A stretch of 64,000 bases of DNA from a virus, in the IMG/VR virus record IMGVR_UViG_3300031555_005249; one strand, given 5' to 3'. The position numbers and the translations under genes are program-made. A model generated the notes under the pieces. It was given only the letters and a program-made list of their open reading frames with translations, was not told the origin of the DNA and ran no database searches. Each line of letters begins with the position of its first letter. Positions within the stretch are counted from its first letter, which is position 1. Positions 895 to 15,315 of the stretch are shown here, piece by piece.

Positions 895-1212
895 TTAATC
901 TTCTTTTTTTAACTGGCTATATCTGTTTACAATATAATCATACAAATCAGAGGCAGTAGGACAAAGTTTCTCAAATTCACCTTCATTAAAAAGCCAATGA
1001 CAAATATAATCTCCACAATCTACGACGTTTTCATCTAATCTTGCCAATCCAAGTGGATCAACTTCATTACTTAGCGCCATCGTGAAAGCATCCATCATAT
1101 TATCAATAACAGTTTCGTTAATGCCAAGAATATCAAATGCTTTTGGCACGTCTCCTGTAAAATACTGTTTGATAGTATCTGCCATCGTTATAAAATTTTT
1201 CTTTTCAATCAT
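895..1212 (-). CDS. hypothetical protein
   Basis: ORF-track ORF with TAA stop. Confidence 0.55.
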   Translation of the reverse strand: MIEKKNFITMADTIKQYFTGDVPKAFDILGINETVIDNMMDAFTMALSNEVDPLGLARLDENVVDCGDYICHWLFNEGEFEKLCPTASDLYDYIVNRYSQLKKED

Positions 1213-1224
1213 TTTTCTTACTCC

Positions 1225-1518
1225 TTATACTATAAAGTTATGCTTTCGCGCTTCAGCATTGAGCCAATTTTTAAACTTACGACAATCGCTTATGTTCTTC
1301 CAACAATAGACGAGTACATTACGTTCTTCATTATATTTAATTCTATCTGGTTTAAACTTTTCGATTATCAGTTTAACATAATCAGCAGGAGAGATACCTA
1401 ACATGCGCGCAGGTACCCACCATTCAAAGCGAACACTTGTTACATCAGAGGTATCATTACAATACCACATTCCATTATTTTCCCACTCAGTATAGCGGAG
1501 TAATTGTGCTTTTGCCAT
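1225..1518 (-). CDS. hypothetical protein
   Basis: ORF-track ORF with TAA stop. RBS upstream. Confidence 0.55.
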   Translation of the reverse strand: MAKAQLLRYTEWENNGMWYCNDTSDVTSVRFEWWVPARMLGISPADYVKLIIEKFKPDRIKYNEERNVLVYCWKNISDCRKFKNWLNAEARKHNFIV

Positions 1519-1601
1519 ATAGTATCTCTCCTTTTAAAAATAAATTACAGACCTAAAGCTTTTAGCAAACCTGCAACCTTTTGTTTTTCCCATTCAGAAA
1601 C

Positions 1602-1853
1602 CTAAACTGGTTCTATACGCTCAGGGGTCGGCGCCGTCATCTTTGGCGCGGGAAAATCTCCAGGCATTGCATTATCTGCGCCGCACGTAACGTTTTCTTT
1701 GGCACACGTTAAAACGCATTTAACTTGTAGTGATTGACCATCTTCAATACCACATATTCTTATCTCCTTGGCATCGTTATATAAAAAACTTCCAGGAAAC
1801 ACCTCTAAAATCTTCGCTTGAATTTCTTTTTTTAACTGTTGTCCTTTTGCCAT
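1602..1853 (-). CDS. hypothetical small early protein (MAKGQQLKKEIQAKILEV...)
   Basis: Internal ATG of ORF 1602..1913 preceded by an AGGAG RBS. The stop is TAG and is followed by 19 in-frame sense codons (VSEWEKQKVAGLLKALGL) before a TAA. Confidence 0.5.
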   Translation of the reverse strand: MAKGQQLKKEIQAKILEVFPGSFLYNDAKEIRICGIEDGQSLQVKCVLTCAKENVTCGADNAMPGDFPAPKMTAPTPERIEPV

Positions 1854-1882
1854 ATTATAATTCTCCTTTATTTTTTGTATAA

Positions 1883-1915
1883 TTATTATATCATATTTTT
1901 TATAAAAAATCAATC
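1883..1915 (-). promoter_or_regulatory. sigma-70-type promoter, TTGATT-17-TATAAT
   Basis: Minus strand: -35 from plus aatcaa at 1908-1913, -10 from plus attata at 1885-1890, spacer 17 nt. Confidence 0.6.
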
Positions 1916-2740
1916 AATATTTTTCCAATGAAGTTTTTCTCCTGTAATAGGATGTTTTCCTGCGCTCTTTTTTCTACCTGCTAAATAATCTAAGATACCT
2001 GTTGAAGTTTTGAGTCCCGCCCATGCAGCTGCTTCTTTTCGAGAAGAAAATATTTCTCCAGTTTCAACACACTAAATCTTTTTACTTTGGCACTCTTTAG
2101 CTCTTTGCTTTTGATAATCAGAAGTAGTTTTTCCATACATTGGATTTTTTTCTCCAAGTTTAGCTTGTCGAATTTTTTCTTTAGCTTCTTCGCTATGTCC
2201 TTTTCCTTGTGTAGGAGTTCCATGTTTAGTAATATAGGCTTTACGAGTTTCACTGATACTTTTTCTCCCCTCTTCTGACATTTCCCAGTGTCTAGTTTCC
2301 CGAGCAACTCTTTGTTTTTCAATATACTCCGGATCCTACCACTTATTTTTCATTAATTGTGACATCTTTTCACGATGAGAATCTTCTTGCCAAAGAGCTT
2401 TAGCATGCTCACTTAGTTTTTGTCTAGTGTCATTTGAAACATTTCTATTTAAACCGCCTGCTTGAATATTATATCCTTTTTCTTTATTAGTTGAATTATA
2501 ATGTTTTATCCAATAAGCTTCTCGTTCATTAGCCTAGTTTAAAGTTAAATTTGTTTCTAAAATAATATGCTCAAACTAGTCCCAGCCATATTTATTAATT
2601 GCGTGAAAAAAATGAGGACAGTTTTCATATCGTTTTCCATTGTCTCCCCAACGATATTCAGGTTTCTAATTTGTCTATCCAATATAAACCTTACCATTAA
2701 CCTTATTTTTGTGCATATAAATACAATAATTATTTGTCAT
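1910..2740 (-). CDS. GIY-YIG homing endonuclease (with NUMOD3-like repeat and C-terminal HTH), TAG-recoded
   Basis: Own minus-strand translation from ATG at 2740-2738 (RBS AAAGGAG): MTNNYCIYMHKNKVNGKVYIG[TAG]TN[TAG]KPEYRWGDNGKRYENCPHFFHAINKYGWD[TAG]FEHIILETNLTLN[TAG]ANEREAYWIKHYNSTNKEKGYNIQAGG...KNKW[TAG]DPEY...GKGHSEEAKEKIRQAKLGEKNPMYGKT...SKKI[TAG]CVETGEIFSSRKEAAAWAG...WKNID then TGA. Six in-frame TAG and no TAA/TGA across 276 codons. GIY-YIG catalytic motif, NUMOD3-like GHSEEAKEKI and an I-TevI-like C-terminal DNA-binding region are all present. ORF-track piece 2072..2281 lies in this frame. Confidence 0.7.
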
Positions 2741-2858
2741 AAATTTTCTCCTTTAATATGTTTATTTAAGCCTTATTGACTTCATTAATATATTATTTTT
2801 GTATTAAATAATTTATATAACTTTAACCTGAATTTTTTCACTATTCAACTACTTTAAA

Positions 2859-3680
2859 TCAATTATTCTTTTTCTTTTTAATGACAAGATTCTTTTGTTT
2901 TAGCTTTTCACTGATATTAAGAACTCGATCACAGATAGAACAATGTTCGCCTTTCATACATTTTCGTCCACAACTTTTACGCAATTGCGCAAACCCTGGT
3001 ACGATGCGACTAGAGTCAAAAGATAAATCAAAATCAAGAATAATTTGATTTAAATCTCCAAGCCAAACTCCTTTTTTATAGATTCTATATAAAATCTCTT
3101 GTCTATTGGTTGGGCCCCAGAATTCAAGAGTCGAAATGCAATCTTCATATTCTACTACATCTTCTGGACGAATAAAGAATTTTTTGAGCGCCGGTCCAGA
3201 TTGAATGCTTCCTTGAGCTACATTTGGAAATGCTCTAATCTGCACCCCATAATTGTCACATACCTTCTTTGCGCGCTTCAGATCAAAGCAAATATCTTCT
3301 GCAAGATAAACTTCCGAAACACCTTGTTCTACAAGATAATGTAGTTGGTCAAAATTGACTACTGTATCTCCAGTAAAATAAGGTATCTCTAAACTTTGTA
3401 TACATTCTACCATCATTTCAGACATTACAGTAAAATATCCTACTTCTTTAAAACATACTGTAAAACCTAGCTCAGGATATTTTTGATGAATTGCATTAAG
3501 TTTTTTCCATTCTTTTGCTTCATAGAAATCTTGAAGATTTGTTATCCTTAAAATAATTTTCTTGTTTGAATACTTTTGCATAAAAGGAACAAGCTCTTTA
3601 TCTTGTCTATCATAAAGAATCGCAATTTCATCAAAGGCATTTAAGTTTATTTTATTGGAAAATAAAGCACAATATTTCAT
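2859..3680 (-). CDS. hypothetical protein with C-terminal Cys cluster (CGRKCMKGEHCSICDR)
   Basis: 273-codon ORF, TGA stop, no internal TAG. C-terminal Cx3Cx5Cx2C putative metal site. Confidence 0.55.
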   Translation of the reverse strand: MKYCALFSNKINLNAFDEIAILYDRQDKELVPFMQKYSNKKIILRITNLQDFYEAKEWKKLNAIHQKYPELGFTVCFKEVGYFTVMSEMMVECIQSLEIPYFTGDTVVNFDQLHYLVEQGVSEVYLAEDICFDLKRAKKVCDNYGVQIRAFPNVAQGSIQSGPALKKFFIRPEDVVEYEDCISTLEFWGPTNRQEILYRIYKKGVWLGDLNQIILDFDLSFDSSRIVPGFAQLRKSCGRKCMKGEHCSICDRVLNISEKLKQKNLVIKKKKNN

Positions 3681-3703
3681 ATTATTAATCTCCTTTTACG
3701 AGT

Positions 3704-3742
3704 AAAAAACAGGCGGCGATAATCAATCCCGCCGCCTGTTTT
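3704..3742 (-). terminator. rho-independent terminator for gene 3777..4166
   Basis: Hairpin AACAGGCGGCG...CGCCGCCTGTT followed on the minus strand by a T-tract. Confidence 0.5.
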
Positions 3743-3776
3743 AAGTCTTAAGTTCAAATATTACGTTCTATTGCTA

Positions 3777-4166
3777 TTACTCAGCATCAGTATCAACGGG
3801 AAGAGTGTAAGCTGTCTTTGTCTTACCATCCTCAGTCTTTACCTTGCACTTTGCAATTGCGCCAGACTCAACAAGGTTGTTAAGCTTAGCCTGAATCTTA
3901 TGAACAGTAAGCTCGCCGCTCTCGTCATTCATTGCAACAAGAATGTCGTCTCTTGTCTGAGGCTCGTTAGTAATTACTGCAAAGACGTTGCCTTGAAGCT
4001 CGTCGCCTTCAGCTCTCTTAGCGGCTGCGCGCTCTCTGTTCTTTGCATTTTTCTTGTCAAGCTTTGCAAGCTCGTTCTCTGCGTACTCTACGAATTCTGC
4101 GTTGTCTGCATAAAGCTCCTTCCACTCGGTGAGCTTCATAGCTGTTGTTCTCTTTGTGTCTGCCAT
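3777..4166 (-). CDS. small early protein, member of a 3-paralog family (with 12369..12779 and 13351..13755)
   Basis: ORF-track ORF with TAA stop. Shares length (~130 aa) and layout with two other early proteins: N-terminal helix, central K/R/A-rich segment, C-terminal KV.T..K.YTL-like motif. Confidence 0.55.
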   Translation of the reverse strand: MADTKRTTAMKLTEWKELYADNAEFVEYAENELAKLDKKNAKNRERAAAKRAEGDELQGNVFAVITNEPQTRDDILVAMNDESGELTVHKIQAKLNNLVESGAIAKCKVKTEDGKTKTAYTLPVDTDAE

Positions 4167-4213
4167 TGTTTTTTTCTCCTTAAAAATTAAATTATTTTTT
4201 TTATTTGGTGTTA

Positions 4214-4246
4214 TTATTATACCAAAAATTTTTTATTTTTTCAACT
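4214..4246 (-). promoter_or_regulatory. sigma-70-type promoter, TTGAAA-17-TATAAT
   Basis: Minus strand: -35 from plus tttcaa at 4239-4244, -10 from plus attata at 4216-4221, spacer 17. Confidence 0.5.
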
Positions 4247-4278
4247 TTGGGTATATTGCCCACGAATAATTTTTATTA

Positions 4279-4539
4279 TTACTCGTTTCTGCTTTTCCCA
4301 TTCTTTACATTTATATTATACCAAAAATTTTTGGATTTTTCAAGTGAAGCCTTTGAACTAACTTTAAATCCTCGTAATACAAGAAATATGAATCCTGTAA
4401 TTAAACAGCTTGTGATAGTACCTAGAACTGCGATCCCTATACCTGCGGCTATTGGCGCAGTAGGAACAGCTATGATACATGCTGCTAGTCCAAGCCAAAA
4501 CATTGCGATAGTTATTAAATAGATAATTGCAACTGCCAT
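4279..4539 (-). CDS. small membrane protein (2 predicted TM helices)
   Basis: ORF-track ORF with strong RBS GGAGG. Hydrophobic N-terminal 60 aa. The C-terminal coding overlaps the tandem promoter region. Confidence 0.45.
   Translation of the reverse strand: MAVAIIYLITIAMFWLGLAACIIAVPTAPIAAGIGIAVLGTITSCLITGFIFLVLRGFKVSSKASLEKSKNFWYNINVKNGKSRNE
4313..4345 (-). promoter_or_regulatory. second (tandem) promoter, TTGAAA-17-TATAAT
   Basis: Same architecture ~100 bp upstream of the previous promoter: plus tttcaa at 4338-4343 and attata at 4315-4320. Confidence 0.45.
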
Positions 4540-4556
4540 TTTTTAACCTCCTTTCT

Positions 4557-5423
4557 TTACCATTCTCTATATCCAGAGTAATCGAAAAGGATTGGCGCCC
4601 CATTAAGATATCCTATATTTGCGGCTCTTAAATCTCCTATTCGATATTCATCAAGGAAGTCATATAGTCTTTTTAGTTCCTCTTGTCCATAACAAGCAAT
4701 AAAATCTGCTACCCATATATCGTTAAAAGCGATAATATCTAGCTCCTGACAAACTTTATCTGATATTTTCTTTTTCTTTTTATAGTCATCACTATTGTAA
4801 TCAATTCCCATTTCATCAAGAGGAATACATCTTTGCTGATAATAAATAGGTGTTTCATCTATCATACCAAGGAAACCTTCTTCAGCGAAATAGGCGCCCA
4901 AACCTGCCTCAAGCGCGTGTTCATAAAGTATAGTTTCCAGCGCGCAATAGTTCCAAGGTTCAATATATTGTTCTTCATCATGAGGCAGTTCGATATCATT
5001 TGCGTATTCAAGATCTGTATACCATATCCTATCTCCTTCATCTGGCTCAGGATATTTGGTATCATAGTCTTTCATTTTTTCGTCCATTTTTTGACGAGCA
5101 AGTTGTATATCACCGTTACATTTGATAAGCATTTGTTGCGCCCATTCTTCATAATAGTCATCTCTTGCTGATTCCCAATCACAATAGGCATCGTCATAAC
5201 TATCCTGCTCAAATACGCAATGAAAAGGAATTTTAATAACATAAGGCTCACCTTTAATAAGCAATACAGCTTTCGATATTCCTCCATCAAGAGAAAATTC
5301 AAAAGGCGGTTGAGCTTCACGTATAGGATCTTCAAGATAAGCCTCTGTATCTTTTAAGTTAAATCCAGAATCAAGTACTGGGATTGTATTTTTTAAGAAA
5401 TTTAGTATTTCTTGTTTTGTCAT
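4557..5423 (-). CDS. hypothetical acidic early protein (288 aa)
   Basis: ORF-track ORF with TAA stop, no TAG, D/E-rich. Promoter at 5461-5493. Confidence 0.55.
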   Translation of the reverse strand: MTKQEILNFLKNTIPVLDSGFNLKDTEAYLEDPIREAQPPFEFSLDGGISKAVLLIKGEPYVIKIPFHCVFEQDSYDDAYCDWESARDDYYEEWAQQMLIKCNGDIQLARQKMDEKMKDYDTKYPEPDEGDRIWYTDLEYANDIELPHDEEQYIEPWNYCALETILYEHALEAGLGAYFAEEGFLGMIDETPIYYQQRCIPLDEMGIDYNSDDYKKKKKISDKVCQELDIIAFNDIWVADFIACYGQEELKRLYDFLDEYRIGDLRAANIGYLNGAPILFDYSGYREW

Positions 5424-5460
5424 TTATATATTTATTTCCTCTCTGATTTTTTCTTATACT

Positions 5461-5493
5461 TAATTATAACATAAATTAAATAAAAAATCAATA
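5461..5493 (-). promoter_or_regulatory. sigma-70-type promoter, TTGATT-17-TATAAT
   Basis: Plus aatcaa at 5486-5491 and attata at 5463-5468, spacer 17. Confidence 0.55.
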
Positions 5494-5524
5494 AAAAACA
5501 GAGCGGCGCGAATGCGTCGCTCTG
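5493..5524 (-). terminator. rho-independent terminator after gene 5563..5781
   Basis: Hairpin CAGAGCG-N12-CGCTCTG with an A-tract on plus, which reads as a T-tract after the hairpin on minus. Confidence 0.5.
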
Positions 5525-5562
5525 AGAGGCGTAAAGTGATTATTCGGCGCCGTCATAAACTG

Positions 5563-5781
5563 TTATCGTTGGTTTATCTTTTTCGATACCTGTTGAATAA
5601 TATATTCCTGTTCTGATTCAAATCCATCATCGAGCAATCCATACTGCTTCATAACCTCGTCAAAAATTTTTTTATCTGCAATATCGACATCATCGTAATA
5701 TAAATCTACAAGATAATTAATTGCTTTTTCAACATTTTCATAATGCTGAGCTATTGCTATATTTAAAGGATTAAAGTTCAT
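5563..5781 (-). CDS. hypothetical small protein
   Basis: ORF-track ORF with TAA stop. Its start overlaps the stop of the upstream gene (ATGAACTTTAA). Confidence 0.5.
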   Translation of the reverse strand: MNFNPLNIAIAQHYENVEKAINYLVDLYYDDVDIADKKIFDEVMKQYGLLDDGFESEQEYIIQQVSKKINQR

Positions 5782-6013
5782 TAGGCGTAACCTCCTCTAT
5801 GGTATAATAACAAGCATCATAGATTTCGTCTGAATTCACGTCGGGAAGTTTAGCAAAAATGACATCTGCGTGCATATCAAGATAAGCTCCAACACACTCT
5901 TCTGCGCAGTATTCCATTTCCTCTTTATTTGTAATATCGACGCGGTCACAGATAAATTCTTCGATAAGTCCATGTAGATAAGAATTTCCAATAGTAACTT
6001 TAATAGCGTTCAT
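5771..6013 (-). CDS. hypothetical small protein (MNAIKVTIGNSYLHG...)
   Basis: Internal ATG of ORF 5771..6058 with a GAGAGGAAA RBS. TAA stop. Confidence 0.5.
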   Translation of the reverse strand: MNAIKVTIGNSYLHGLIEEFICDRVDITNKEEMEYCAEECVGAYLDMHADVIFAKLPDVNSDEIYDACYYTIEEVTPNEL

Positions 6014-6046
6014 TTTATTTCCTCTCTTTTCTTTTTTATTACATAT

Positions 6047-6079
6047 ATATTTTATCATATTTTTTGAAAAAAATCAATT
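6047..6079 (-). promoter_or_regulatory. sigma-70-type promoter (TTGATT-17-TAAAAT, weaker -10)
   Basis: Same sequence family as the other early promoters (atatattttatcatattttttgaaaaaaatcaatta). Confidence 0.4.
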
Positions 6080-6121: not shown

Positions 6122-6154
6122 ATTTGACTTTATTTTAATTTTATATTATAATTA
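6122..6154 (+). promoter_or_regulatory. plus-strand sigma-70-type promoter, TTGACT-17-TATAAT (divergent from 6047-6079)
   Basis: ttgact at 6124-6129, tataat at 6147-6152, spacer 17. Drives the nested plus-strand gene block. Confidence 0.55.
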
Positions 6155-6187: not shown

Positions 6188-6667
6188 GTGGAAATAATTG
6201 GATTAATTATTTTAATAGCTGGATTAATATTTATTGGATTTGACTATGGACGTATGTTAATTAAGAATCGGCGCCTATAGGCAAAATTAGGTGATGATTC
6301 GGCGCCTTACACACCTACAAGGAATATTATGGTAATGGATGAATATTGCCCTTATTTAGTTAAATTAACGACACTATGTATTAAAGCTCATGGAGATGCT
6401 AATATTAAAATTACAAAATATGATAGTAGTCAAGAGAATGTTGGTGTGATTAAAGTGTATTTTGATAATGATGATGAACTATTGGTTTATTAGTATGGTA
6501 AAGCAAAGATTAAAGAGTTAACAAATAGAGAAAAGAAGAATTATGCTAATAAAATTTTTCTTGACTATAAGTTACCAGAGGGTGCGGCCGGCGCAGTAAT
6601 AAAAGATTTAGGATTAATGAATCACATGGTTTATTTCGGCTTTTGTGATGAAAGGAGTGTAAAATGA
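6188..6667 (+). CDS. hypothetical protein with N-terminal TM segment, TAG-recoded (2 in-frame TAG)
   Basis: GTG start after an AAAAGGAGA RBS. Frame stays open across 159 codons with only two TAG codons, no TAA/TGA. Terminal TGA overlaps the ATG of 6664 (ATGA). Confidence 0.4.
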
Positions 6668-7071
6668 GTAATTGGGCAAAAACAGGTGAAGCTTATTTTG
6701 GAGATTCTTTTGATAGAAAAATAACTCTTGGACCTGGGGAATTGAGTTTTAGCGCTAATAATTGCGTGATAGATCAAGATGCTTTATCTTCTATAGTAGG
6801 ATATGATAGTGCTAATACTTATGCAATGGCAACTAGTTATGAAAAGCCAATAAGTATAGGCTACTGTGGAGATATAAGTGCTAAGGCAGATTCTGTTAGC
6901 GCTTTACAAGTGGATATTTCAGCAAGAGTAGATCAGCTTGAAGAGAAGCTTGATACAGTAATGGCGCGCATTGATGAGTTAAAGCAGTCTGTTTCACGTA
7001 CTTCAAGATTGCGTTCGTTATTAAGAACGTTGCATTATAATAGCGAAGTTGAAAGTGGCGCCAACTTTTGA
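6664..7071 (+). CDS. hypothetical protein
   Basis: ORF-track ORF, RBS GAAAGGAG, no TAG. Confidence 0.55.
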   Translation: MSNWAKTGEAYFGDSFDRKITLGPGELSFSANNCVIDQDALSSIVGYDSANTYAMATSYEKPISIGYCGDISAKADSVSALQVDISARVDQLEEKLDTVMARIDELKQSVSRTSRLRSLLRTLHYNSEVESGANF

Positions 7072-7328
7072 TGTAAGCTGCTAAGGGTGCAGATTGGCGC
7101 ATGAACCAACACGATTTTGCTACGATTTTAATTGAACTTGCTTTTGATAAAAGGCGGCATGACAACAGATTGTTGCAAAACTATTAAAGATGATGCGATA
7201 AGGAAAATATAGAAAAGAGTATATCGTCGAAAAATTGGCAAATTAAGGTAGTATTATGGAAAAAATTTTGGACAAAAATAGATACAATTACTACCTTAAT
7301 TTTTATATAATAGTGAAAGGAGTTAGTA

Positions 7329-7526
7329 ATGACTCGTGAAGAAATAATATTTTAGTTAAAGGAGATGCGCGCAAAAGGTTATACGTATAAGTTGATTGCG
7401 AAAGAGGCAAAATTAGATAATCCTGATTAGCTTTATAAGTTTATCAATAGAGATGCTCCTGCTATTTGGGTGAAGCAGCAATTAGAGAACTATTTGCGCC
7501 GAGTAAACGGAAATGGGTCAAATTAA
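7329..7526 (+). CDS. small HTH-like protein, TAG-recoded (2 TAG)
   Basis: RBS AAAGGAG. Translation MTREEIIF[TAG]LKEMRAKGYTYKLIAKEAKLDNPD[TAG]LYKFINRDAPAIWVKQQLENYLRRVNGNGSN, TAA stop. Confidence 0.4.
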
Positions 7527-7551
7527 AGAAAGAGTGATTTACACTCGAAAA

Positions 7552-7689
7552 ATGGCGTACGAATTACGCAAGTTGGGTTTTAAGATTATTAGAGTGATAC
7601 CTGATGAGAAGAAACCTTATTTTGATAATTATGTATTTGAAGATAGTCTTGAGTTACAAGAGGCTATGCGCAAATTATCTTAGGTTTAA
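7552..7689 (+). CDS. small hypothetical protein (1 TAG before TAA)
   Basis: Translation MAYELRKLGFKIIRVIPDEKKPYFDNYVFEDSLELQEAMRKLS[TAG]V then TAA. Weak RBS, so tentative. Confidence 0.3.
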
Positions 7690-7714
7690 AATAAGGAATC
7701 GGAGGTATCGGATA

Positions 7715-8398
7715 ATGATTAAAGAATTTAAGAATAATCCTGTAAGAGATTTTGGTAACGTATATCAGACTATGTTGTCACAGATAAAAAAGAGATATGA
7801 GAAAGATCCTGTACAAGCTGGAGAATTAGCTATTAGTTTTATTGAATATGTATTAACAGGTGATATTAGTAGTGACGATGATATTATTGAAGGCTTTGTT
7901 GAAGGATATAAGGTTACGACTAAAAAGAATCAAGATAAATATGATGCTAAGGTCGCTGCAACAAGAGACGCGCTAAAGCCAATTGCAGATATGTATAATA
8001 GGGGTATGACACAGGCGGCGATTGCGCGTGAGCTAGGTGTTCAGCCGCCCGCTATTTCAAAGAAAATGTCTACCATTCGTACACAGTTTCCAGAGTTGTT
8101 AGATAATGAAGGAAAATTAAAGAAAGTTTCCGAAAATTCTGGAAATAATGGAAAGTTTCCAAAAAATGAGGAAAGTATAGAAAAAGTTTCTGAAAATTCT
8201 GGAAATATTAAGAAAGAAGAAGAAAGTTTAGAAACGTTTCCAAGTTTCCAAAGTTTCCACAATAATAATAACTATAATAACAATAATAACTAGAATAATA
8301 ATAATGAAGTTTCCATTTCGCCTCGCGGCGAGTCAGGGCTTCGCCCCGACACCCCTGCGGCTTCGCCGATAAAGAAGATTGGAGGGTTTGAGTTTTGA
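7715..8398 (+). CDS. HTH DNA-binding protein (sigma-region-4-like motif GMTQAAIARELGVQPPAISKKM) with repeat-rich C-terminus; 1 in-frame TAG
   Basis: RBS GGAGGT. Internal ATG of ORF 7604..8293, continuing through the TAG at 8291 to a TGA at 8396-8398. Contains GTTTCC iteron-like repeats at the DNA level (see repeat feature). Confidence 0.5.
8120..8260. repeat. iteron-like array, 6 copies of GTTTCC(A/T) followed by an AT-rich AATAATAAC tract
   Basis: GTTTCC at about 8126, 8155, 8186 (GTTTCT), 8236, 8244 and 8253. The last three are tandem with ~8.5-bp periodicity. The AT-rich low-complexity stretch spans 8261-8310. Confidence 0.4.
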
Positions 8399-8790
8399 GG
8401 GGAGTATATGTAATTGCTGATGATATGGGAAGAGTTTACTATGTGGGACAGAGTGAATAGTTGGAAAATAGAACATGGGGACATTTAGCTAAAATAAAAC
8501 AAGATGAGAATAAATATAAGAAAAATAAATTATATTGGATATTGGGTAGATTGAATGATTTAAAAGTTGGGCTTCATTGTTATTTATTAGAAGAGTATCC
8601 GTCATGGAATAGAATCGATATTAAGACAAGAGAAAAAGAAAATATTCGATTGTTAAAACCTGTATTAAATACTTAGGTTCCTACTGATTGCATTTGTTAT
8701 ATGAAGAATATTTGGAATGCGGTAACAGCGGCAGTTCAGGCAGATGAAAATGGAAGATGGGATTTTAAAGGATGTAGGAAAATATGGTGA
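8395..8790 (+). CDS. small GIY-YIG nuclease-family protein, TAG-recoded (2 TAG)
   Basis: TTG start overlapping the upstream TGA. Translation ..RGVYVIADDMGRVYYVGQSE[TAG]LENRTWGHLAKIKQDENKYKKNKLYWILGRL... carries the GIY-YIG signature (GVYVI...VYYVGQS...R...H). ORF-track piece 8461..8676 lies in this frame. TGA stop. Confidence 0.5.
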
Positions 8791-8877
8791 AGATGTGGAG
8801 AAATTATAGTAGAGTGGAGAGTTGTCCTGCGACCGAATCCAGAACCACTTCCACTCATCTCTCGTCTTCGTTATCCC

Positions 8878-8910
8878 TATTGATTTATAATAAAATATAT
8901 GATATAATAA
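8878..8910 (+). promoter_or_regulatory. plus-strand sigma-70-type promoter, TTGATT-17-TATAAT
   Basis: ttgatt at 8880-8885, tataat at 8903-8908, spacer 17. Confidence 0.55.
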
Positions 8911-8942
8911 TTATAGAAAATATAAGAAAGGAAATAATACCA

Positions 8943-9314
8943 ATGAATATTGAAGATATGATCATGAATGGTGCATCTGAAGAAGAGATTGCAGAAGCTA
9001 TAGACCAGATTCGCGCCAAGAGAACCTTGAAAATGGAAGAAGAGCGTCAGGCGCGCGAATCTCAAAAGAAGAAAGATGAAGAGCAGACCGCGAAAGAGGC
9101 GCTTAAGGCAGAGGCTCGCGCGCATTTCATCAATGCTGTACTTGCATATAGTGAGGCTTTTGACCTTTTGGAAGAGGGAGAGAGCTGGACTGAAGAAGAT
9201 CTAAAAGAGGTGGAAGAGTACCTTATTCAGATTGAAGGAATAATTCCTATGTATGCTAAGATGATGAAGAAGAAAAAGGAATTCGGATTTGGAGATCTTT
9301 TTGGATTGATATAA
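8943..9314 (+). CDS. hypothetical E/K-rich coiled-coil protein
   Basis: Internal ATG (MNIEDMIMNGASEEE...) of ORF 8784..9314 with RBS AAGGAAATAATACCAATG. TAA stop, no TAG. Confidence 0.5.
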   Translation: MNIEDMIMNGASEEEIAEAIDQIRAKRTLKMEEERQARESQKKKDEEQTAKEALKAEARAHFINAVLAYSEAFDLLEEGESWTEEDLKEVEEYLIQIEGIIPMYAKMMKKKKEFGFGDLFGLI

Positions 9315-9606
9315 GCGCCGGTCCAGGTTATAGAAGTATAAATATAGAGAATAGAGCGTTGGGTAAAACCCGGCGCTCTTATTGTTTTACCTCTTGACGC
9401 GACGAAGGCGCATTGGCGCCGAGGAGCGAAAGTTAAAAATTTTTCAAAAGTAGATAATTGTATTACCTTAATTTTAATATAACAATGACAAAGAAATACA
9501 TTGTCACTAAGAAAGATTGTAACGAATTATTAAACTACTTAATTTTATAGTCATTATAAAAGTCATTACAATCTTTCCAATACTAAAAGAAAGGAGATGA
9601 ATTATA

Positions 9607-10314
9607 GTGAAACTTGTTGAAGGTAAAATAACTTTAGCTAATTTGGCTACTTGGCTAGGAGTATCTGCAGGCACCCTGCGCAATAATAAAAGTAAGTATT
9701 TAAATATTTTAGCTCGCTATTGCCGATATCATGAAGAAGGAACTACCAAAAAGACTCTTTATATTGATGAAGTATACGAAGCAGAATATTCGGCGCTATA
9801 GGGTCCAAAACCTTATCAAAGAGTAAAAGAGTTAACAAGAGAGGGTTGGAGCGCAGAAGGGCTAGATAGTTGTGCTCTTGTTGCAAGTCGTAATTTTCCT
9901 ATTCTATAGCAAGAGGGATACACAATTACAGAAAATACCAATTATAATTATACTTGTTAGAGCAGAACGGAACTTTGGGGCAGTCCTATGAAGCGCACAA
10001 ATGGTGAGCTTGGCTATTGTCGTTATGAGTATTGTAAAATTGGACCTTAGGGCAAGCTTGTTCCGCTTAATGAGGAAGAATAGAAGATTAAGCGCTAGAT
10101 CACAGAGAAATACTTTGGTAATTTAGAAGATTTTACTCTTGGGATAGCTGATGATATTAAAACTGGTAAGATTACTGCGGAAGAGGCTGGTATTGCATTA
10201 GCTAATTTAGGTAGTCATGGAGAATATTTAGCTTGGAAGAATGAACTTGAGGCTAGACTAGGTTGTAAGATTTATAAAGGAACAAGAATACATAATGAAG
10301 AGAGTGCGTTTTAA
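9607..10314 (+). CDS. HTH-domain protein (N-terminal ITLANLATWLGVSAGTL), TAG-recoded (about 7 TAG)
   Basis: GTG start after an AAGGAG RBS. ORF-track piece 9607..9801 continues in frame through TAG codons to a TAA at 10312-10314. No TAA/TGA inside the 236 codons. Confidence 0.45.
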
Positions 10315-10335
10315 TGCGCACTCTTTTTGCCGTGT
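10300..10335 (+). terminator. rho-independent terminator
   Basis: Hairpin AGAGTGCG-TTTTAAT-GCGCACTCT followed by TTTTTGCC. Confidence 0.5.
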
Positions 10336-10484
10336 ATTTATTTTTACTATGCATTTCTAGCAAAAGTACTACACGTAGTAAAATCAATACACGATGAATG
10401 TGGTAATTTGCTAAGTTTTTTAATCATACTCAGCCTATACTTCGCTTGATAATAAATAATATTAGGTACATTTGCAACCTTTCT

Positions 10485-11221: not shown

Positions 11222-11464
11222 TCAATCCTCTGTCACCTCTTCCTCTCCGTTTTTATCATACAATTTTCCGTCTGTACAACAGCCGTCATAGGTCAGGCGC
11301 ATATATTCTATCCAATGATGACCGCAGTTATGACATCTGCGCTCTATTGAGATTATCTCGTATAAGTCACCATTCTGTTCGGTGACATCTATCTCGGGGT
11401 CACTTGAATTATAGACCTTTTCAAACTCGCCGCATTTCGGACATTCGTATTCTCTTGTTTTCAT
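11222..11464 (-). CDS. zinc-ribbon protein (CPKC...CHNC)
   Basis: ORF-track ORF with TGA stop. Two CxxC pairs. Confidence 0.55.
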   Translation of the reverse strand: MKTREYECPKCGEFEKVYNSSDPEIDVTEQNGDLYEIISIERRCHNCGHHWIEYMRLTYDGCCTDGKLYDKNGEEEVTED

Positions 11465-11748
11465 TCTTCTTCCTCGCTTTCTTCGGGAATATCATAAGAT
11501 AGGATTGTTCCATAGTATATGGCAGTATACAAATTGCGCCATCGTTTTTCGCAATTAAGACATTGATAAGTTTCCTCAACGAAGCCGTTGTTGTCATTTG
11601 GATATTCAAATGGATTTACTCCACTTCCATCATTCCAAACGATATTATCAGATTTGCAAAAAGGACACACAATCCCTGCTTTGGGAAGTCTTACCATAGT
11701 ATTATTGGCGGTATAGTTTCCTGTTTGTAATTTCTTATATATATTCAT
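11461..11748 (-). CDS. zinc-ribbon protein (CPFC...CLNC), acidic C-terminal tail
   Basis: ORF-track ORF. Its TGA overlaps the next start (ATGA). Confidence 0.55.
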   Translation of the reverse strand: MNIYKKLQTGNYTANNTMVRLPKAGIVCPFCKSDNIVWNDGSGVNPFEYPNDNNGFVEETYQCLNCEKRWRNLYTAIYYGTILSYDIPEESEEEE

Positions 11749-11784
11749 TCCTCTTCCTCGCTTTCGTAGTGGGGGTGACTTTCG

Positions 11785-12255
11785 TCACCCCTCGGTAAAG
11801 TAGGTGTCAAATTCGCCTTTAGTTTTAAGCGATTCAAGACCTTTCTTCGTGTATCTCGTCAAGTCAAGCTTAAAGTATTCACCGCCTTGCTTGAACACTA
11901 TCATTTTACCCGCCTTGACGATTTTACAGTAGTCTGCATTTTCCGATATAGCGGTTTCGATTGCTTGGATAATTCCGTTCTTAGTTTTATCCTCTTTCAC
12001 TACCCTCTCGCGCTGTGTCTTTTGCTTATACTCGGTTGATTTAGCTTTATGAACCGTTGCGCTAACTCGATTCTCTTTAGCTTTTGCGGTGAGTGCTTGT
12101 TCTTCTTCGTTGTCGATATAATCGTTATCAAAGAGCCAAAGGTCAACCGCCTCTTGCCGTGAGCATTTAAGCATACGCATATTCAGCTCTATTGCCTCAT
12201 TCGGTACTCGCACTGTGCGCCCGTTCTCAAGGGTATAAAGGCTATAATCTGCCAT
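11785..12255 (-). CDS. hypothetical protein
   Basis: ORF-track ORF with TGA stop. Promoter at 12290-12322. Confidence 0.55.
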   Translation of the reverse strand: MADYSLYTLENGRTVRVPNEAIELNMRMLKCSRQEAVDLWLFDNDYIDNEEEQALTAKAKENRVSATVHKAKSTEYKQKTQRERVVKEDKTKNGIIQAIETAISENADYCKIVKAGKMIVFKQGGEYFKLDLTRYTKKGLESLKTKGEFDTYFTEG

Positions 12256-12289
12256 TGGTTTTTACCTCTCTTTCTGTCCTCTTGACATA

Positions 12290-12322
12290 TATATTATACC
12301 ACACTCTTGGTCATTTGTCAAG
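12290..12322 (-). promoter_or_regulatory. sigma-70 consensus promoter, TTGACA-17-TATAAT, with AT-rich UP-like tract
   Basis: Plus tgtcaa at 12316-12321 and attata at 12293-12298. Upstream (minus sense) AAAAAATTTTTCAAAAAC tract. Confidence 0.65.
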
Positions 12323-12368
12323 AGGTTTGGTAAAAGTTTTTGAAAAATTTTTTTGGTATGAGGGAGAA

Positions 12369-12779
12369 TTACTCTCCCTCTACCTCGTCTACTACCCCGT
12401 AATTAAGGGAGTAGTATGCAACTTTCTTTTCAAGGGTGCGCTTAAAGTCTGCGCTCTTGGACACGATAGCGGTAATCATCTGTGACGATACGTTATCTCC
12501 GTTAGCTCTCTTATACTCTTTGATAGAATCGACCTTGAGGAGTGAGCCAACGGTCATTCCCTTTTCATCTACACACTCGGCGAGAGCGTCCTTGATAAGT
12601 TCGGTTACTGCGAGAGCGTCTTTCTGCGCAGGAGTGAGAGAAGCGGACTTTGAGTTCTTACGGGAGAGAAGCTCTATCTCGTGAGCCATAACATCTGCCC
12701 ACTCGGTTTTGCCGTTCTCTATGAGGAACGCTTTGATGTTCTCAAAATTCTCTCTCTTGGTGATTTTCTTTTCTGCCAT
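12369..12779 (-). CDS. small early protein, paralog family member
   Basis: ORF-track ORF with TAA stop inside the hairpin loop. Paralog of 3777..4166 and 13351..13755. Confidence 0.55.
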   Translation of the reverse strand: MAEKKITKRENFENIKAFLIENGKTEWADVMAHEIELLSRKNSKSASLTPAQKDALAVTELIKDALAECVDEKGMTVGSLLKVDSIKEYKRANGDNVSSQMITAIVSKSADFKRTLEKKVAYYSLNYGVVDEVEGE

Positions 12780-12856
12780 AGTTTTCTACCTTTGCGATCT
12801 GTGACCGCCCTTTCAAAATTTTTTATTTCAAGAGGATTTTCCTCTTGATTACATAT

Positions 12857-12889
12857 ATATTATATCACAAGTTTGTGATTTTGTCAAGG
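12857..12889 (-). promoter_or_regulatory. P1 promoter, TTGACA-17-TATAAT
   Basis: Plus tgtcaa at 12882-12887 and attata at 12859-12864. Confidence 0.65.
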
Positions 12890-12996
12890 GGTTTTTGAAA
12901 AGTTTTTCAAAAATTTTTTATTTTTTTCAGTGGTTGCAACTACGGGACGATGCCTCGCAAGGTCGTTCTATCCGTCACCGCCCCTTGACTACGATA

Positions 12997-13029
12997 ATAT
13001 TATATCATAAAAAGATAAATTTGTCAATA
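12997..13029 (-). promoter_or_regulatory. P2 promoter, TTGACA-17-TATAAT, ~130 bp upstream of P1, with conserved leader ATTATCGTAGTCAAGGGG
   Basis: Plus tgtcaa at 13022-13027 and attata at 12999-13004. The 25-nt block ccccttgactacgataatattata recurs at 15301-15325. Confidence 0.55.
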
Positions 13030-13080
13030 GAAAATGGGAAAATAATTTGCACAAATTTGAGAGGAATTTTGGTGAGAAAA

Positions 13081-13097
13081 TTGTGCAACTTGCACAA
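13081..13097. promoter_or_regulatory. palindromic operator-like site TTGTGCAAcTTGCACAA
   Basis: Perfect 8-1-8 palindrome, with an additional half-site TTTGCACAAA at 13047-13056. The same motif occurs at 15409-15425 and 19508-19525, and half-sites at ~15375, ~16819, ~18296 and ~19079. Confidence 0.45.
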
Positions 13098-13140
13098 AAA
13101 CGCACAAATCGGCCCAGCGGCGGCCGCCGTTGGGCCGGTC

Positions 13141-13169
13141 AAAAAAAGACCTCTGCCGTCGCAGAGGTC
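13141..13169 (-). terminator. rho-independent terminator (minus) plus adjacent GC hairpin 13111-13136
   Basis: Plus A7 then hairpin GACCTCTGC-cgtc-GCAGAGGTC, which reads on minus as hairpin followed by a U-tract. Second hairpin GGCCCAGCGGCGGCCGCCGTTGGGCC. Confidence 0.5.
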
Positions 13170-13350
13170 TATCCTCGAGGTTGACCATTCTCGCTTTCTC
13201 GCCACTCCTTGCGCATAGGGGACTTTGGTTTTAATGGTCTGCAAAGGCGTGTGATTTGAACACACATCTGTTGGAAACGAAACCAACTGTTCTTCCATTA
13301 AACTACCCTTTGTTATGTATGAGGGGCGCATTTGCGCCCCTGTGCCTCAC

Positions 13351-13755
13351 TCACGCAAGGCGAAAGTAAGTGACCTTTTTGTCAATGGTCTTGACTACAT
13401 CACCGCAGTCAACGAGCTTTTTAAGCATAGAGGAAACTCGCTGTGAAGATGTTTCCTTACCATCTGCCCACTCAAACTCTGCGATACGAGAATCCTTTGC
13501 TATCGCACCGCACTGCATACCCTTTACATCGGTTGCTTCTGCGAGAACATCATGAATGAGGTCAAGGAAAGTATCAACTTCCTCTGCGCGCTTTGCGCTG
13601 ACCTTACCACTCTTGCTTTCAAGCTGACCGAGCTTCTTTTCGGCAAACTCGATTACTTTATCCATAGGGATTGTGGTCGGCTCTCCGCTTGCCATCTTGA
13701 TGATTTCCTCATACATCTGCTTCTGTGTGTACTTGATTTCCTTGATTTCTGCCAT
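13351..13755 (-). CDS. small early protein, paralog family member
   Basis: ORF-track ORF with TGA stop. Paralog of 3777 and 12369. Confidence 0.55.
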   Translation of the reverse strand: MAEIKEIKYTQKQMYEEIIKMASGEPTTIPMDKVIEFAEKKLGQLESKSGKVSAKRAEEVDTFLDLIHDVLAEATDVKGMQCGAIAKDSRIAEFEWADGKETSSQRVSSMLKKLVDCGDVVKTIDKKVTYFRLA

Positions 13756-13832
13756 AATTTTTTTCCTCTCTTGCTATTAGGTTGCAACCCTTTAATTTTA
13801 TTTATCAGAGGTATTCCCTCTTGATTACATAT

Positions 13833-13865
13833 ATATTATACCATACTTTTTGGTATTTGTCAATA
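13833..13865 (-). promoter_or_regulatory. sigma-70 consensus promoter, TTGACA-17-TATAAT
   Basis: Plus tgtcaa at 13858-13863 and attata at 13835-13840. Confidence 0.65.
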
Positions 13866-13906
13866 GGTTTTTGAAAAATTTTTTATTTTTTTTCTTGGGT
13901 AGAGGG

Positions 13907-14626
13907 TTATTCACCCTCTACCTCTTTGCGCTTATGAAAGGGATATACCCATTCACCCTCTGGAGTTAAGCAACCGAGTTTCGTGCGCTCTTGGAAGATA
14001 TTACAACCTCTTTTTCCAAGTTCACAAAGAATACGGAGTTCCCATTGAACATCGGAAAGTGCGGTATGTTCCTCAACAAAATCTTTATCTTGGTTAAGAA
14101 ATGCGGTTACACCCTCAACAGAGGTCGGTATATATTTACCACTTGGAGTGCGGAGTTCGTGTTCGTTGCAAAATGCGATATAATCTGCGGTAGAGCATAT
14201 GTCGTATTGTGCATTACACCATATATCTATAACCTCGATTTTGTCAAGTGGATTCAAAATACCGAGCGCAGTTGCGGTTCTGCGGAATTTGTCCTCGTCA
14301 AACTCGGAGTTATAGGCAAAGCCATACTGTATGCCATATCGGTCAATATCTCTTGCTATTTGCTCAAATATCTGTTTTTCGGTACGGAGTATTGCCGTTC
14401 CGTTCTCAACATTCAAGTCAAACTTTGCGAGTTTTTCTGCTTTGACGAACATATCATTCAAGAGCCAAATGCGGTTGTGATAATGTTTGCCTACAAGATA
14501 GTCTTTGCCTTTGAGTATCTTATACTTAAAGGTTGTTAAGTCAACATCTGCTATACAATAGCCTATGTTAAGTAGTGTTTGGGTACAACACCCTGCGGTT
14601 TCGGTATCAAATACCATAATGTTCAT
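13907..14626 (-). CDS. DEDDh-type 3'-5' exonuclease (DnaQ-like)
   Basis: MVFDTETAG (Exo I D-x-E motif) and HTALSDV (Exo III). 239 codons with no TAG, TAA stop. Confidence 0.65.
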   Translation of the reverse strand: MNIMVFDTETAGCCTQTLLNIGYCIADVDLTTFKYKILKGKDYLVGKHYHNRIWLLNDMFVKAEKLAKFDLNVENGTAILRTEKQIFEQIARDIDRYGIQYGFAYNSEFDEDKFRRTATALGILNPLDKIEVIDIWCNAQYDICSTADYIAFCNEHELRTPSGKYIPTSVEGVTAFLNQDKDFVEEHTALSDVQWELRILCELGKRGCNIFQERTKLGCLTPEGEWVYPFHKRKEVEGE

Positions 14627-14683
14627 TTTTTCTTTTCCTCTCTTTCTGTCATAGGGAGTAGCCCTCGCTCTCCACTCGACATA

Positions 14684-14716
14684 TATATTATATCACATCT
14701 TGACGAATTTGTCAAG
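14684..14716 (-). promoter_or_regulatory. sigma-70 consensus promoter, TTGACA-17-TATAAT
   Basis: Plus tgtcaa at 14709-14714 and attata at 14686-14691. Overlaps the 3' end of upstream gene 14712..15158. Confidence 0.6.
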
Positions 14717-15158
14717 AGGTTTTACAAAATTTTTTCAAAATTTCAAAAATTTTTTCGGGCGGAAATGCGTCACCCTTAGTCCACTCAAGGCGGTTGCGCT
14801 CTTCATCGTCAAACAGTATGCCCTCACTCTTGGCTACGGACGATTTGGGTGTGCCATATGGAACGATATGCAATTCATCAAAAATAACGGACTTCAAGTG
14901 CTTTTTGAGCCATTTGCGCTTGGCTTTAGTGACCGCCTTGTTATAGTCCTCAGTTGCGGCTTTAGACAGCCACGATATAACACCTATATGAACGCCATTG
15001 CGCTGAGCCTTATTCAATGCTCTTGCAAGTGCAGACATATTGTGCATAGGTCTTGCTTCTTCATATGGGCGCGTTCGCTTGGCTTCAAGGTCATCGAGCC
15101 AGCCTTCGACCGCATAAAGGTCAGCAACGGTGCCGTCAAGGTCTAAATAAATTGTCAT
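14712..15158 (-). CDS. HAD-superfamily 5'(3')-deoxyribonucleotidase-like protein
   Basis: N-terminal IYLDLDGTVADL (DxDGT HAD motif I). ORF-track ORF with no TAG. Confidence 0.6.
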   Translation of the reverse strand: MTIYLDLDGTVADLYAVEGWLDDLEAKRTRPYEEARPMHNMSALARALNKAQRNGVHIGVISWLSKAATEDYNKAVTKAKRKWLKKHLKSVIFDELHIVPYGTPKSSVAKSEGILFDDEERNRLEWTKGDAFPPEKIFEILKKFCKTS

Positions 15159-15190
15159 TTGGTTTAGTTCCTTTCTTCCTTACTGCTCTT

Positions 15191-15223
15191 ATATTATACC
15201 ATACTTTGAGCGATTTGTCAAGG
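15191..15223 (-). promoter_or_regulatory. P1 promoter, TTGACA-17-TATAAT
   Basis: Plus tgtcaa at 15216-15221 and attata at 15193-15198. Confidence 0.6.
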
Positions 15224-15315
15224 GGTTTTTGAAAAATTTTTTCAAAAATTTTTGAGTGTCCACTGATTAGCAAGTCCATTTCACTGCTTTTGTTTCTCAC
15301 CCCTTGACTACGATA

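Follow-up and report, generated by a model that had tools for sequence, protein, structure and literature searches.

A candidate iteron-type replication origin within the gene for its putative initiator in a TAG-recoded phage

We analysed a 64,000-nucleotide (nt) stretch of viral DNA, IMG/VR record IMGVR_UViG_3300031555_005249 (hereafter the window), in which a gene for a helix-turn-helix (HTH) protein at 7715-8398 contains a three-part element at 8123-8368: an array of short repeats, an AT-rich tract and a group of GC-rich hairpins, together referred to as the module. We propose that this cis-acting element is probably an iteron-type origin at which replication starts, and that its cognate initiator is most likely the protein of 7715-8398, which belongs to an uncharacterised family that combines a DUF6291-like domain with an HTH. 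Both proposals rest on sequence and on analogy with known origins. The phages of this group are large (contigs of ~120-400 kb), uncultured, TAG-recoded phages of gut Firmicutes, and to our knowledge essentially nothing is known of their replication. A preliminary description of the same DNA had suggested a candidate origin at 8120-8310. Its architecture and our comparison of the window with related loci at graded distance from it (L001-L024) render that suggestion the probable one; the proposed extent takes in the array and the AT tract but misses the GC-rich hairpins at 8318-8368.

Results

A phased array of half-sites at the 3' end of the gene

The iteron array (8123-8260) is made up of half-sites, 25-nt units and palindromes. 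On the + strand, GTTTCC occurs at 8126, 8155, 8236, 8244 and 8253 and GTTTCT at 8186; this amounts to six copies in 134 bp, in agreement with the six repeats within 135 bp first described. The form given for them, GTTTCC(A/T), is right for the GTTTCCA copies at 8155, 8236, 8244 and 8253 but not for those at 8126 (GTTTCCG) and 8186 (GTTTCTG). Inverted copies, which read GGAAA on the + strand, are found at 8111, 8141, 8150, 8170 and 8201, with GAAAC at 8231. The last three direct copies (8236-8259, + strand) are in tandem, 8 and 9 bp apart, matching the ~8.5-bp spacing reported before, and adjoin the AT tract. Direct and inverted half-sites combine into two 25-nt units, AAAGTTTC(C/T)GAAAATTCTGGAAATA, of the form TTTCC-N9-GGAAA (8123-8147 and 8183-8207), and into the palindromes TGGAAAGTTTCCA (8149-8161) and GAAACGTTTC (8231-8240). 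Two outer + strand copies of GTTTCCA flank the array, one beyond the AT tract at 8309-8315 and the other at 8086-8092. The latter falls in the codons for QFPE, a conserved motif with which the HTH domain ends, and may be incidental; the matching codons in L005 and L007 differ from GTTTCCA.

The cluster stands out from the remainder of the window. Six of the eight + strand copies of GTTTCCA in the 64 kb belong to it, and the 240 bp at 8086-8315 contain seven GTTTCC/GGAAAC sites against a mean of 0.14 (Poisson P ~1e-10; ~2e-8 to 7e-8 when corrected for the number of windows counted). No other cluster in the 64 kb has at least five copies of any 7-mer within 250 bp, and the composite sites GGAAAGTTTCC and GAAACGTTTC are unique to this region. 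Elsewhere the motif occurs at about the rate expected by chance; hence, the predicted binding sites within these 64 kb are confined to the protein's own gene and, since the motif is not scattered over the window, the protein is unlikely to act here as a regulator of many targets.

All three reading frames are represented among the GTTTCC copies, which are translated as VS, FP or SF. When the DNA is aligned with that of close relatives, the half-sites form conserved islands, and whole repeats have been gained or lost as insertions and deletions (indels).

An AT-rich tract directly after the array

The repeats give way directly to a 45-bp tract (8261-8305) that is 91% AT, in line with the >40-bp tract noted in the preliminary description, and that has a (ATAATAACT)n periodicity. 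We regard it as a candidate DNA-unwinding element. In a ranking of the 40-bp loci of the window by instability it comes about tenth; it contains an in-frame TAG (8291-8293) and directly adjoins the most GC-rich 54-nt stretch of the window (8313-8370, 72% GC). Every lineage examined has an equivalent hexamer-periodic AT-rich tract after its array, coding in some cases and noncoding in others.

The periodicity of 3 nt or 6 nt, with units such as (AATGAT)n, (AATGTA)n, (AATGTT)n and (GATATT)n, is seen in the window and is kept even where the tract is noncoding (L007, L011, L013 and L017-L020). None of the tests that we applied accounts for it. DnaA-trios were considered as an explanation for the 3-nt period; their polarity and sequence gave no clear fit.

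GC-rich hairpins with a strand-specific loop

The third part of the element consists of three GC-rich hairpins at 8318-8368, all assigned to the bottom (-) strand. Hairpin A (TCGCC-TCGC-GGCGA) lies at 8318-8331. The top strand of hairpin B (8332-8350) reads GTCAGGGC-TTC-GCCCCGAC; its bottom strand folds with eight continuous pairs around a GAA loop (GCGAAGC), an A·C mismatch of the top strand being a G·T pair on the other. Hairpin C (CGGC-TTC-GCCG, 8358-8368) provides a second bottom-strand GCGAAGC. Both B and C have the features of the GCGAAGC-type mini-hairpin, a GAA loop present on one strand.

Hairpin A occurs with a constant stem and a variable loop in L001, L003, L005 and L024, and its position is occupied by a wholly different stem in L021 (GGAATTC-TTC-GAATTCC) and L023 (GGAAAGC-TTC-GCTTTCC). 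Hairpin B has variants in L024 (GTTGGGGC-AAA-GCCCCAAC) and L009 (GTGGAC-TGC-GTCCAC). Hairpin C is found in L001, L003, L024 and L021, and with a TTT loop in L022; it is absent from L005 and L023. For the bottom strand of hairpin B, 72 of 72 alignment cells are paired, with compensatory changes in five of the eight pairs, and none of 500 shuffles scored as high. The top strand pairs less completely (88.9% of cells; four of eight pairs changed on both sides). With the three hairpins taken together, the top-strand covariation score was again not reached by any of 500 shuffles, and slid controls paired in only 29-48% of cells.

In most lineages the loop is C-TTC-G on the gene strand, that is, C-GAA-G on the bottom strand. 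Across 321.7 kb we found 23 stems closed by C-TTC-G, 17 of them in module zones that make up 3.4% of the sequence; their enrichment at the module is 80-fold, and there they keep to one strand. Stems of the opposite orientation number two in the same 321.7 kb, neither of them near the module. In the window, hairpins B and C are the only two C-TTC-G-closed stems, and GCTTCGC, the complement of GCGAAGC, occurs within them at 8339 and 8361 and at two further places, both far from the module.

Two other identities for the hairpins were tried and rejected. As intrinsic terminators they lack a T-run and give no terminator score at 8318-8368 (the scored sites are at 9353 and 10296), and the window's clade has them within the open reading frame (ORF). 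As a tRNA-like attP core they fail on several counts: no tRNA was detected by ARAGORN or Rfam, the loops are of 3 nt, the stems covary and no integrase is nearby. A search of the region against Rfam returned nothing relevant, either at the gathering threshold or at permissive E-values.

The module is conserved as DNA

The preliminary description had reasoned that absence of the repeats from relatives that conserve the protein would count against an origin. In 17 of 17 related loci (37-87% protein identity) we found a repeat array in the same place, followed by an AT-rich tract. In an unbiased scan of 18 loci of 6.4-64 kb each, in which we located the densest 7-mer cluster of each locus, this cluster was centred between -259 and +303 nt from the stop codon of the gene in all 18.

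The repeated motif differs between lineages, as does the recognition-helix region of the HTH. GTTTCC, used in the window, L001, L003, L009, L022 and L024, accompanies QPPA(I/V)SK; ATATTCC (L005 and L021) accompanies TQSNVSKKLTK or AQSTVSKKLTK; TACAAA (L007, L011, L017, L018 and L020), or TACAAA together with TACCAA (L015 and L019), goes with Q(Q)xVSYR for the combined motif TAC(A/C)AA; and EKTVSYRM is paired with AATCTA, the array motif of L013 being AAATCTAAAA. Motif and recognition helix appear to change together, a correlation along the phylogeny from which we infer binding.

The position of the module relative to the reading frame also varies. In L013 and L016 the protein is tail-less (164 aa), and array, AT tract and hairpins all lie 3' of the stop codon; this noncoding array has ~12 copies in both orientations. 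L007, L011 and L015-L020 have one array within the ORF and a second downstream, the second being followed by the AT tract and hairpins in L007, L011 and L017-L020. Where the hairpin DNA is translated, its frame is not constant: ESGLRPDT is the translation of GTCAGGGCT(T/G)CGCCCCGACACCCC in the window, L001, L003 and L005, and L021, L022 and L023 use a shifted frame that gives GQGCAPTP, a 1-nt indel returning L021 and L022 to the shared frame. Within the ESGLRPDT group, a 27-nt core shows zero synonymous change at 43-84% protein identity.

Spacings between half-sites (n=180) fall at 8-12 bp in 96 cases, 19-23 bp in 27 and 28-33 bp in nine, with ten at 13-18 bp. As the spacings cluster at 8-12, 19-23 and 28-33 bp, we consider the half-sites to be helically phased. 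In many lineages the final three or four repeats of an array are 8-9 bp apart and lie beside the AT tract or shortly ahead of the stop codon. We found this closing run in L001, L024, L009, L022, L005, L021, L011 and L018; it adjoins the AT tract in the first six, and in L011 and L018 it closes both arrays, the downstream one adjoining the tract. A further box, AAGTAGAT, was seen near the module in six loci, some of them distant lineages, and is absent from the window's clade.

The use of three frames, the lineage-specific motifs, the noncoding version in L013 and the helical phasing all indicate that the repeats are selected as DNA. We conclude that there is a strong case for constraint on the element as nucleic acid. 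At the level of sequence, the comparison establishes that the order and orientation of the module are conserved across the family and tied to the gene.

A folded DNA-binding protein with a tail encoded by the module

The putative initiator gene (7715-8398, + strand) encodes 227 aa if TAG 8291 is read as sense. The earlier placement of the repeats and AT tract inside a coding region holds on this condition; with the standard code, translation would stop at 8293, and reaching 8398 requires read-through. We accept read-through because the phage recodes TAG window-wide. Reading TAG as sense raises the long-ORF content of the window from 15,686 to 26,121 aa, with ORFs of up to ~3,150 aa. In-frame TAGs are concentrated in a + strand late block at 22.8-64 kb (22779-64000), where a 3,142-aa tape-measure-like ORF (39381-48809) contains 82 and the ORF at 48916-53880 contains 32; the early blocks (minus strand, 895-6058 and 11222-22558; plus strand, 6254-10400) are almost TAG-free. 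No suppressor tRNA with anticodon CTA was found within the 64-kb window. Extension to 8398 is further justified because relatives with a sense codon reach the same conserved C-terminus: L001 (84% identity) has AAG at the position of TAG 8291 and continues in frame to a matching C-terminal F-D-F, and a 99%-identical database protein crosses this position and ends in GGFEF. In both the window (8291-8293) and L009 (10577, 10595 and 10613), the only in-frame TAGs of the HTH gene fall in the AT tract; therefore, the conserved C-terminal peptide would be made there only under TAG suppression. In L007 and L020, TAGs are spread along the entire gene.

Residues 14-124 comprise a helical, DUF6291-like domain and an HTH of the LuxR/GerE/sigma region-4 type, and an AlphaFold model of residues 1-135 has a pLDDT of 90.5. 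The remainder (residues ~133-227) is a disordered tail encoded by the module: in a full-length model of the 99%-identical protein P0001, residues 133-226, which are everything encoded by the repeats, AT tract and hairpins, have a pLDDT of 33-46. The window protein gives weak matches to HTH_38 and DUF6291, the latter scoring 17.8 bits against a curated gathering cut-off of 27.2. Across the family, 24 of 32 tested members match DUF6291 (PF19808) over the N-terminal helical domain with E <0.01 (best, 6.7e-07), and DUF6291 proteins are among the viral structural neighbours; membership of the window protein in DUF6291 is borderline. DUF6291 is a family without an assigned function, and we found no literature on it in the library searched.

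The family comprises ~129 clusters (at 50% identity) at E <=1e-30 and 420 at E <=1e-10. Its layout is constant. The N-terminal domain and HTH are followed by a tail whose peptide repeats are specific to the lineage, then by a stretch with dipeptide periodicity (NN, DN, NV, DT or YE) and a short end, in which a terminal F is nearly invariant and usually part of F-x-F. Short members of 135-164 aa end directly after the HTH. Searches with NCBIfam, and with Pfam for the long members, revealed no fused domain that would point to a function.

Genomic context

The window is AT-rich phage DNA (35% GC). Its late block includes genes for a late sigma factor (22779-23951), the large terminase subunit TerL (25249-26997) and portal (27521-29074). 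TerL is 42-46% identical to those of large Firmicutes siphoviruses, including Geobacillus virus E3, Enterococcus phages of ~140 kb and the TAG-recoded gut phage phAss-1 (PMC10607447). Deposited phage genomes gave no match to a DNA search with 6200-9400 or a protein search with the N-terminal domain, and no cultured relative carries the gene. In the annotated Enterococcus phage H1, the gene upstream of TerL is unannotated and was of no help in identifying a small terminase; scans of the neighbouring early genes of the window with Pfam and PHROGs yielded no small terminase either.

The HTH gene sits in a small + strand early island, 17 kb from TerL and portal. The best sigma-70-like promoter match (TTGACT-17-TATAAT, 11/12) is at the head of this island (6124-6152, + strand); it is a consensus match only, and transcription from it would traverse the module. 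Directly upstream of the gene is a small + strand ORF of 56 aa (7513-7683) with a weak match to DUF5659. An ORF of 61-68 aa occurs upstream of the gene in related loci for which called genes are listed, mostly overlapping the gene start, and its sequence similarity is detectable in L009, L010 and L013.

On the 3' side are a GIY-YIG nuclease ORF and then small ORFs without a family match. The nuclease ORF (8395-8790, + strand; Pfam E = 5e-07) has a TTG start that overlaps the stop of the HTH gene, and in-frame TAGs occur in it at 8458 and 8674. Since L003 alone has a homologue in this place, the ORF has the look of a mobile homing endonuclease inserted between the module and a downstream promoter. 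A second GIY-YIG-like ORF (YIYMHKNKVNGKVYIGQ...) at 1910-2740 (minus strand) has six in-frame TAGs within an otherwise TAG-free early block. Beyond the insertion, 8878-8940 is the least stable 40-60-bp duplex of the whole window; it coincides with a promoter-like sequence (TTGATT-17-TATAAT with an extended TG, 8880-8908) ahead of the ORF at 8943-9314, a homologue of which comes after the module in five relatives. In two distant relatives, an eight-copy CCGATCG cluster lies ~2 kb downstream of the module (L011, near 12442; L017, near 2914).

Other early features of the window were also recorded. An ORF at 13907-14626 (minus strand) resembles DEDDh/DnaQ-like exonucleases (phrog_20187, a weak match to a DNA polymerase exonuclease subunit); in 12 related loci it is conserved at a distance of 4-8 kb from the module, and it is the sole hint of DNA metabolism among the conserved neighbours. 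Three early proteins of ~130 aa, all on the minus strand, look alike (3777-4166, 12369-12779 and 13351-13755). The last two are conserved in 9-10 related loci, and none of the three has a Pfam or PHROG match. The only tRNA gene of the window, at 13241-13312 (minus strand; Rfam tRNA, 44.6 bits), has an 8-nt anticodon loop, read by ARAGORN as a four-base anticodon 'tcgt', and overlaps a probably spurious ORF at 13005-13331.

Toxin-antitoxin genes (PemK, MazE and CopG-like) lie less than 10 kb from the module in L003 (11614-11964), L005 (18869-19207), L007 (18553-18834), L021 (7927-8073) and L023 (6878-7138). They could indicate that these phages are maintained as plasmids.

Discussion

A phased array, an AT tract and strand-specific GC structures, in conserved order, constitute the architecture of an iteron origin, and it is for this reason that we read the module as one. 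In the mechanism that we envisage, the folded N-terminal part of the protein (DUF6291-like domain and HTH) would bind ~12 GTTTCC half-sites, whose phasing at multiples of ~10 bp, in direct and inverted orientation, would place a multi-protein complex on one face of the DNA. The three packed sites at 8236-8259 would set this complex against the 45-bp AT tract, which would then melt. Once single-stranded, the bottom strand of the GC-rich segment could fold into GAA-loop hairpins of the GCGAAGC type, and these might limit the bubble, serve as a priming or helicase-loading signal, or both. The disordered tail would be a passenger translation of the DNA element, and the conserved terminal F-x-F peptide may recruit a replisome component of the host or the phage. 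We infer each of these steps (protein binding, unwinding of the tract, action of the hairpins as single strands and the start of replication) from the layout of the element and from the comparisons.

The closest precedents are phage origins that lie within the gene of their own binding protein. In lambda and Stx phages, iterons and an adjacent AT tract are located within gene O, in the linker between the DNA-binding N-terminal part and the partner-binding C-terminal part; iteron number varies, extra iterons lengthen the O protein, and the iterons nearest the AT tract are critical (PMC7466680). The lambda-like arrangement put forward in the preliminary description, with repeats and an AT tract inside the gene of a DNA-binding protein, is indeed present here, as an analogy between non-homologous proteins: there is no relationship of sequence or family to O, and no match to Phage_rep_O. 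Other differences are that lambda has four to six 19-bp iterons, whereas the arrays here consist of 12-30 half-sites of 6-7 bp in mixed orientation; that a P-like loader gene lies directly downstream in lambda and not here; and that here the AT tract and strand-specific hairpins are also translated, in an ORF that needs TAG read-through.

The Bacillus phage SPP1, also a Firmicutes phage, has its oriL within gene 38, with direct repeats as well as an unwinding element rich in AT, and a second related site elsewhere in the genome (PMC6316719). The window shares with it the placement of repeats and an AT-rich element in the gene of the (here putative) origin-binding protein, and the second site is comparable to the second, downstream array of our distant relatives. 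We detected no homology to its product, G38P, and no Phage_rep_org_N, Rep_Org_C or DnaB_2 match. Gene 38 is followed by genes for a helicase loader (gene 39) and a DnaB-type helicase (gene 40), whereas neither is recognisable here. We therefore describe the element as analogous to lambda ori/O and SPP1 oriL/G38P, with a protein that is not a member of those families.

Iteron replicons of plasmids and plasmid prophages, such as P1 oriR/RepA, R6K and RK2, have phased short repeats, bound by their own initiator, beside an AT-rich unwinding element, and the P1 incC and incA arrays lie on either side of the end of the initiator gene. Helically phased arrays beside an AT-rich tract are found here too, and L017, L018 and L019 have arrays on both sides of the gene end, as in P1. 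The differences are in the protein, which has a helical N-terminal domain and a LuxR/sigma region-4-like HTH rather than a Rep_3 or winged-helix RepA fold; in the repeats, which are much shorter than plasmid iterons of 17-22 bp; and in the DnaA boxes, which are not enriched.

The hairpins have parallels of their own. GCGAAGC and CCGAAGG form exceptionally stable DNA mini-hairpins, found at the priming site of G4, in ssiA (recognised by the RepB' primase) and in the hairpin promoters of N4 (PMC13037366). Like the complementary-strand origin of G4 and ssiA of RSF1010, the element has GAA-loop motifs closed by C-G, on one strand, in a (candidate) origin region. Those are single-strand initiation sites of single-stranded DNA phages and a plasmid, whereas here the motifs flank the AT tract of a large double-stranded DNA phage, and a role in priming is a candidate function.

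Several observations weigh against an origin. No helicase, loader, primase or polymerase is recognisable beside the gene or in the early regions of the window (Pfam, PHROGs and NCBIfam), no helicase or loader is present among the called genes of related loci with gene tables, and in lambda and SPP1 such genes are neighbours of the one for the initiator. DnaA boxes (with at most one mismatch) show no enrichment near the module. The AT tract is not the point of lowest stability in the window, which is at 8878-8940. The HTH is of a regulator type. In distant relatives ~30 half-sites extend over 400-500 bp, an arrangement resembling centromere, incompatibility or copy-control arrays, and several relatives have toxin-antitoxin genes close by. 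Covariation in the hairpins derives from few independent changes, mainly in L024 and L009, and the folding energy of the segment by itself does not differ significantly from that of shuffled sequences (z -1.4 to -1.7); we therefore base the case for structure on covariation together with strand asymmetry. Finally, the minimum of the cumulative GC skew over the 64-kb window is near 6 kb, ~2 kb from the module. Since skew follows gene orientation and the coding strand, we take it neither to support nor to refute an origin.

The best placed of the alternatives, which we nonetheless judge unlikely, is a transcriptional control region, in which the HTH protein is a regulator, the array a large operator or enhancer for the gene itself or the next operon, and the tract and hairpins a boundary between transcription units. 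An HTH of the LuxR/GerE/sigma region-4 type would suit such a role, one source labels homologues 'predicted transcriptional regulator', and in distant lineages the hairpins are followed by a strong promoter-like sequence and then the next gene; the window has a promoter-like site at 8880-8908. The downstream promoter, however, is past the hairpins, and the inserted GIY-YIG gene stands between the two in the window. Moreover, 12-30 phased half-sites far exceed the needs of an operator, and the array is at the 3' end of the regulator's own gene and not at a promoter. The hairpins have neither a T-run nor a terminator score, and in the window's clade they are within the ORF and better paired on the antisense strand. 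A regulator would also leave the conserved AT tract and the strand-specific GAA loops unexplained.

Slightly less probable again is another kind of DNA-handling site, either a packaging (pac) site, with the protein resembling a small terminase, or an array that serves a plasmid-like phage as a centromere or in copy control, for which the long arrays and toxin-antitoxin genes of some relatives would be fitting. For packaging, the gene would be expected beside TerL in the late packaging module; instead, it is 17 kb from TerL and portal, in an early island almost free of TAG, whereas the late genes are full of TAGs. For partition, we found no ParA/ParM-type ATPase or integrase among the called genes within ~10 kb in loci with gene tables. 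Contig ends do not fall at the module, and neither pac nor a centromere requires an unwinding tract followed by hairpins specific to a single strand.

We give much less credence to the idea that the functional form is RNA. In that case the hairpins and AT tract would act in a transcript, for example as antisense RNA, primer RNA or an element for processing or stability, and the repeats would be secondary. Strand-specific loop sequence and pairing do point to some single-stranded form, and there is a weak minus-strand promoter-like match at 8431-8403. However, the strand that pairs better is antisense to the sole well-supported direction of transcription, the candidate antisense promoter matches at only 9/12 positions and lies within the non-conserved GIY-YIG insertion, Rfam gives no match, and phased, lineage-specific arrays that change with the HTH would go unexplained. 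Least likely of all is that there is no cis element and that the repeats reflect a low-complexity, repeat-rich tail in an AT-rich genome. The tail is indeed disordered and of low complexity, and AT-rich genomes often encode stretches rich in N or D. This reading is already contradicted by half-sites in all three reading frames and with helical phasing, by a module that is noncoding in L013 and L016, by hairpin DNA kept across a change of reading frame, and by GC-rich codons that do not vary, even synonymously, in a genome of 35% GC.

An origin inside the gene of its initiator is an arrangement already known. What would be new is the initiator family, the arrays of short half-sites, the strand-specific mini-hairpins and the TAG in the unwinding tract of a recoded phage, as well as an unwinding tract and hairpins that are translated in alternative frames in a module that moves in and out of the ORF between lineages. 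A bolder proposal, which we make only speculatively and consider improbable, is that this is a new initiator family whose reading frame holds the whole origin and that, by changing its genetic code, the phage gates or re-tunes the start of replication. One stretch of DNA would then hold both a protein code, in frames that differ by lineage, and a replication code. Before TAG suppression, the stop in the unwinding tract would yield a DNA-binding protein without the C-terminal F-x-F; after the switch to TAG suppression, the full-length protein would be made.

If the origin proposal is correct, it would name an origin and an initiator for this group of phages and assign a function to a family of >100 clusters (50% identity) that overlaps DUF6291. 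It would also supply a rule for finding origins in other members, namely the densest cluster of short repeats at the 3' end of the gene. The pairs of motif and recognition helix would form a set for studies of DNA-recognition specificity and for compatible replicons in Clostridia. The locus would be a clear natural case of overlapping codes, with the same hairpin DNA kept in two translation frames and a unit of repeats, tract and hairpins that shifts into and out of the reading frame between lineages. Finally, the TAG in the unwinding tract would tie the element to the question of what stop-codon recoding regulates in phages.

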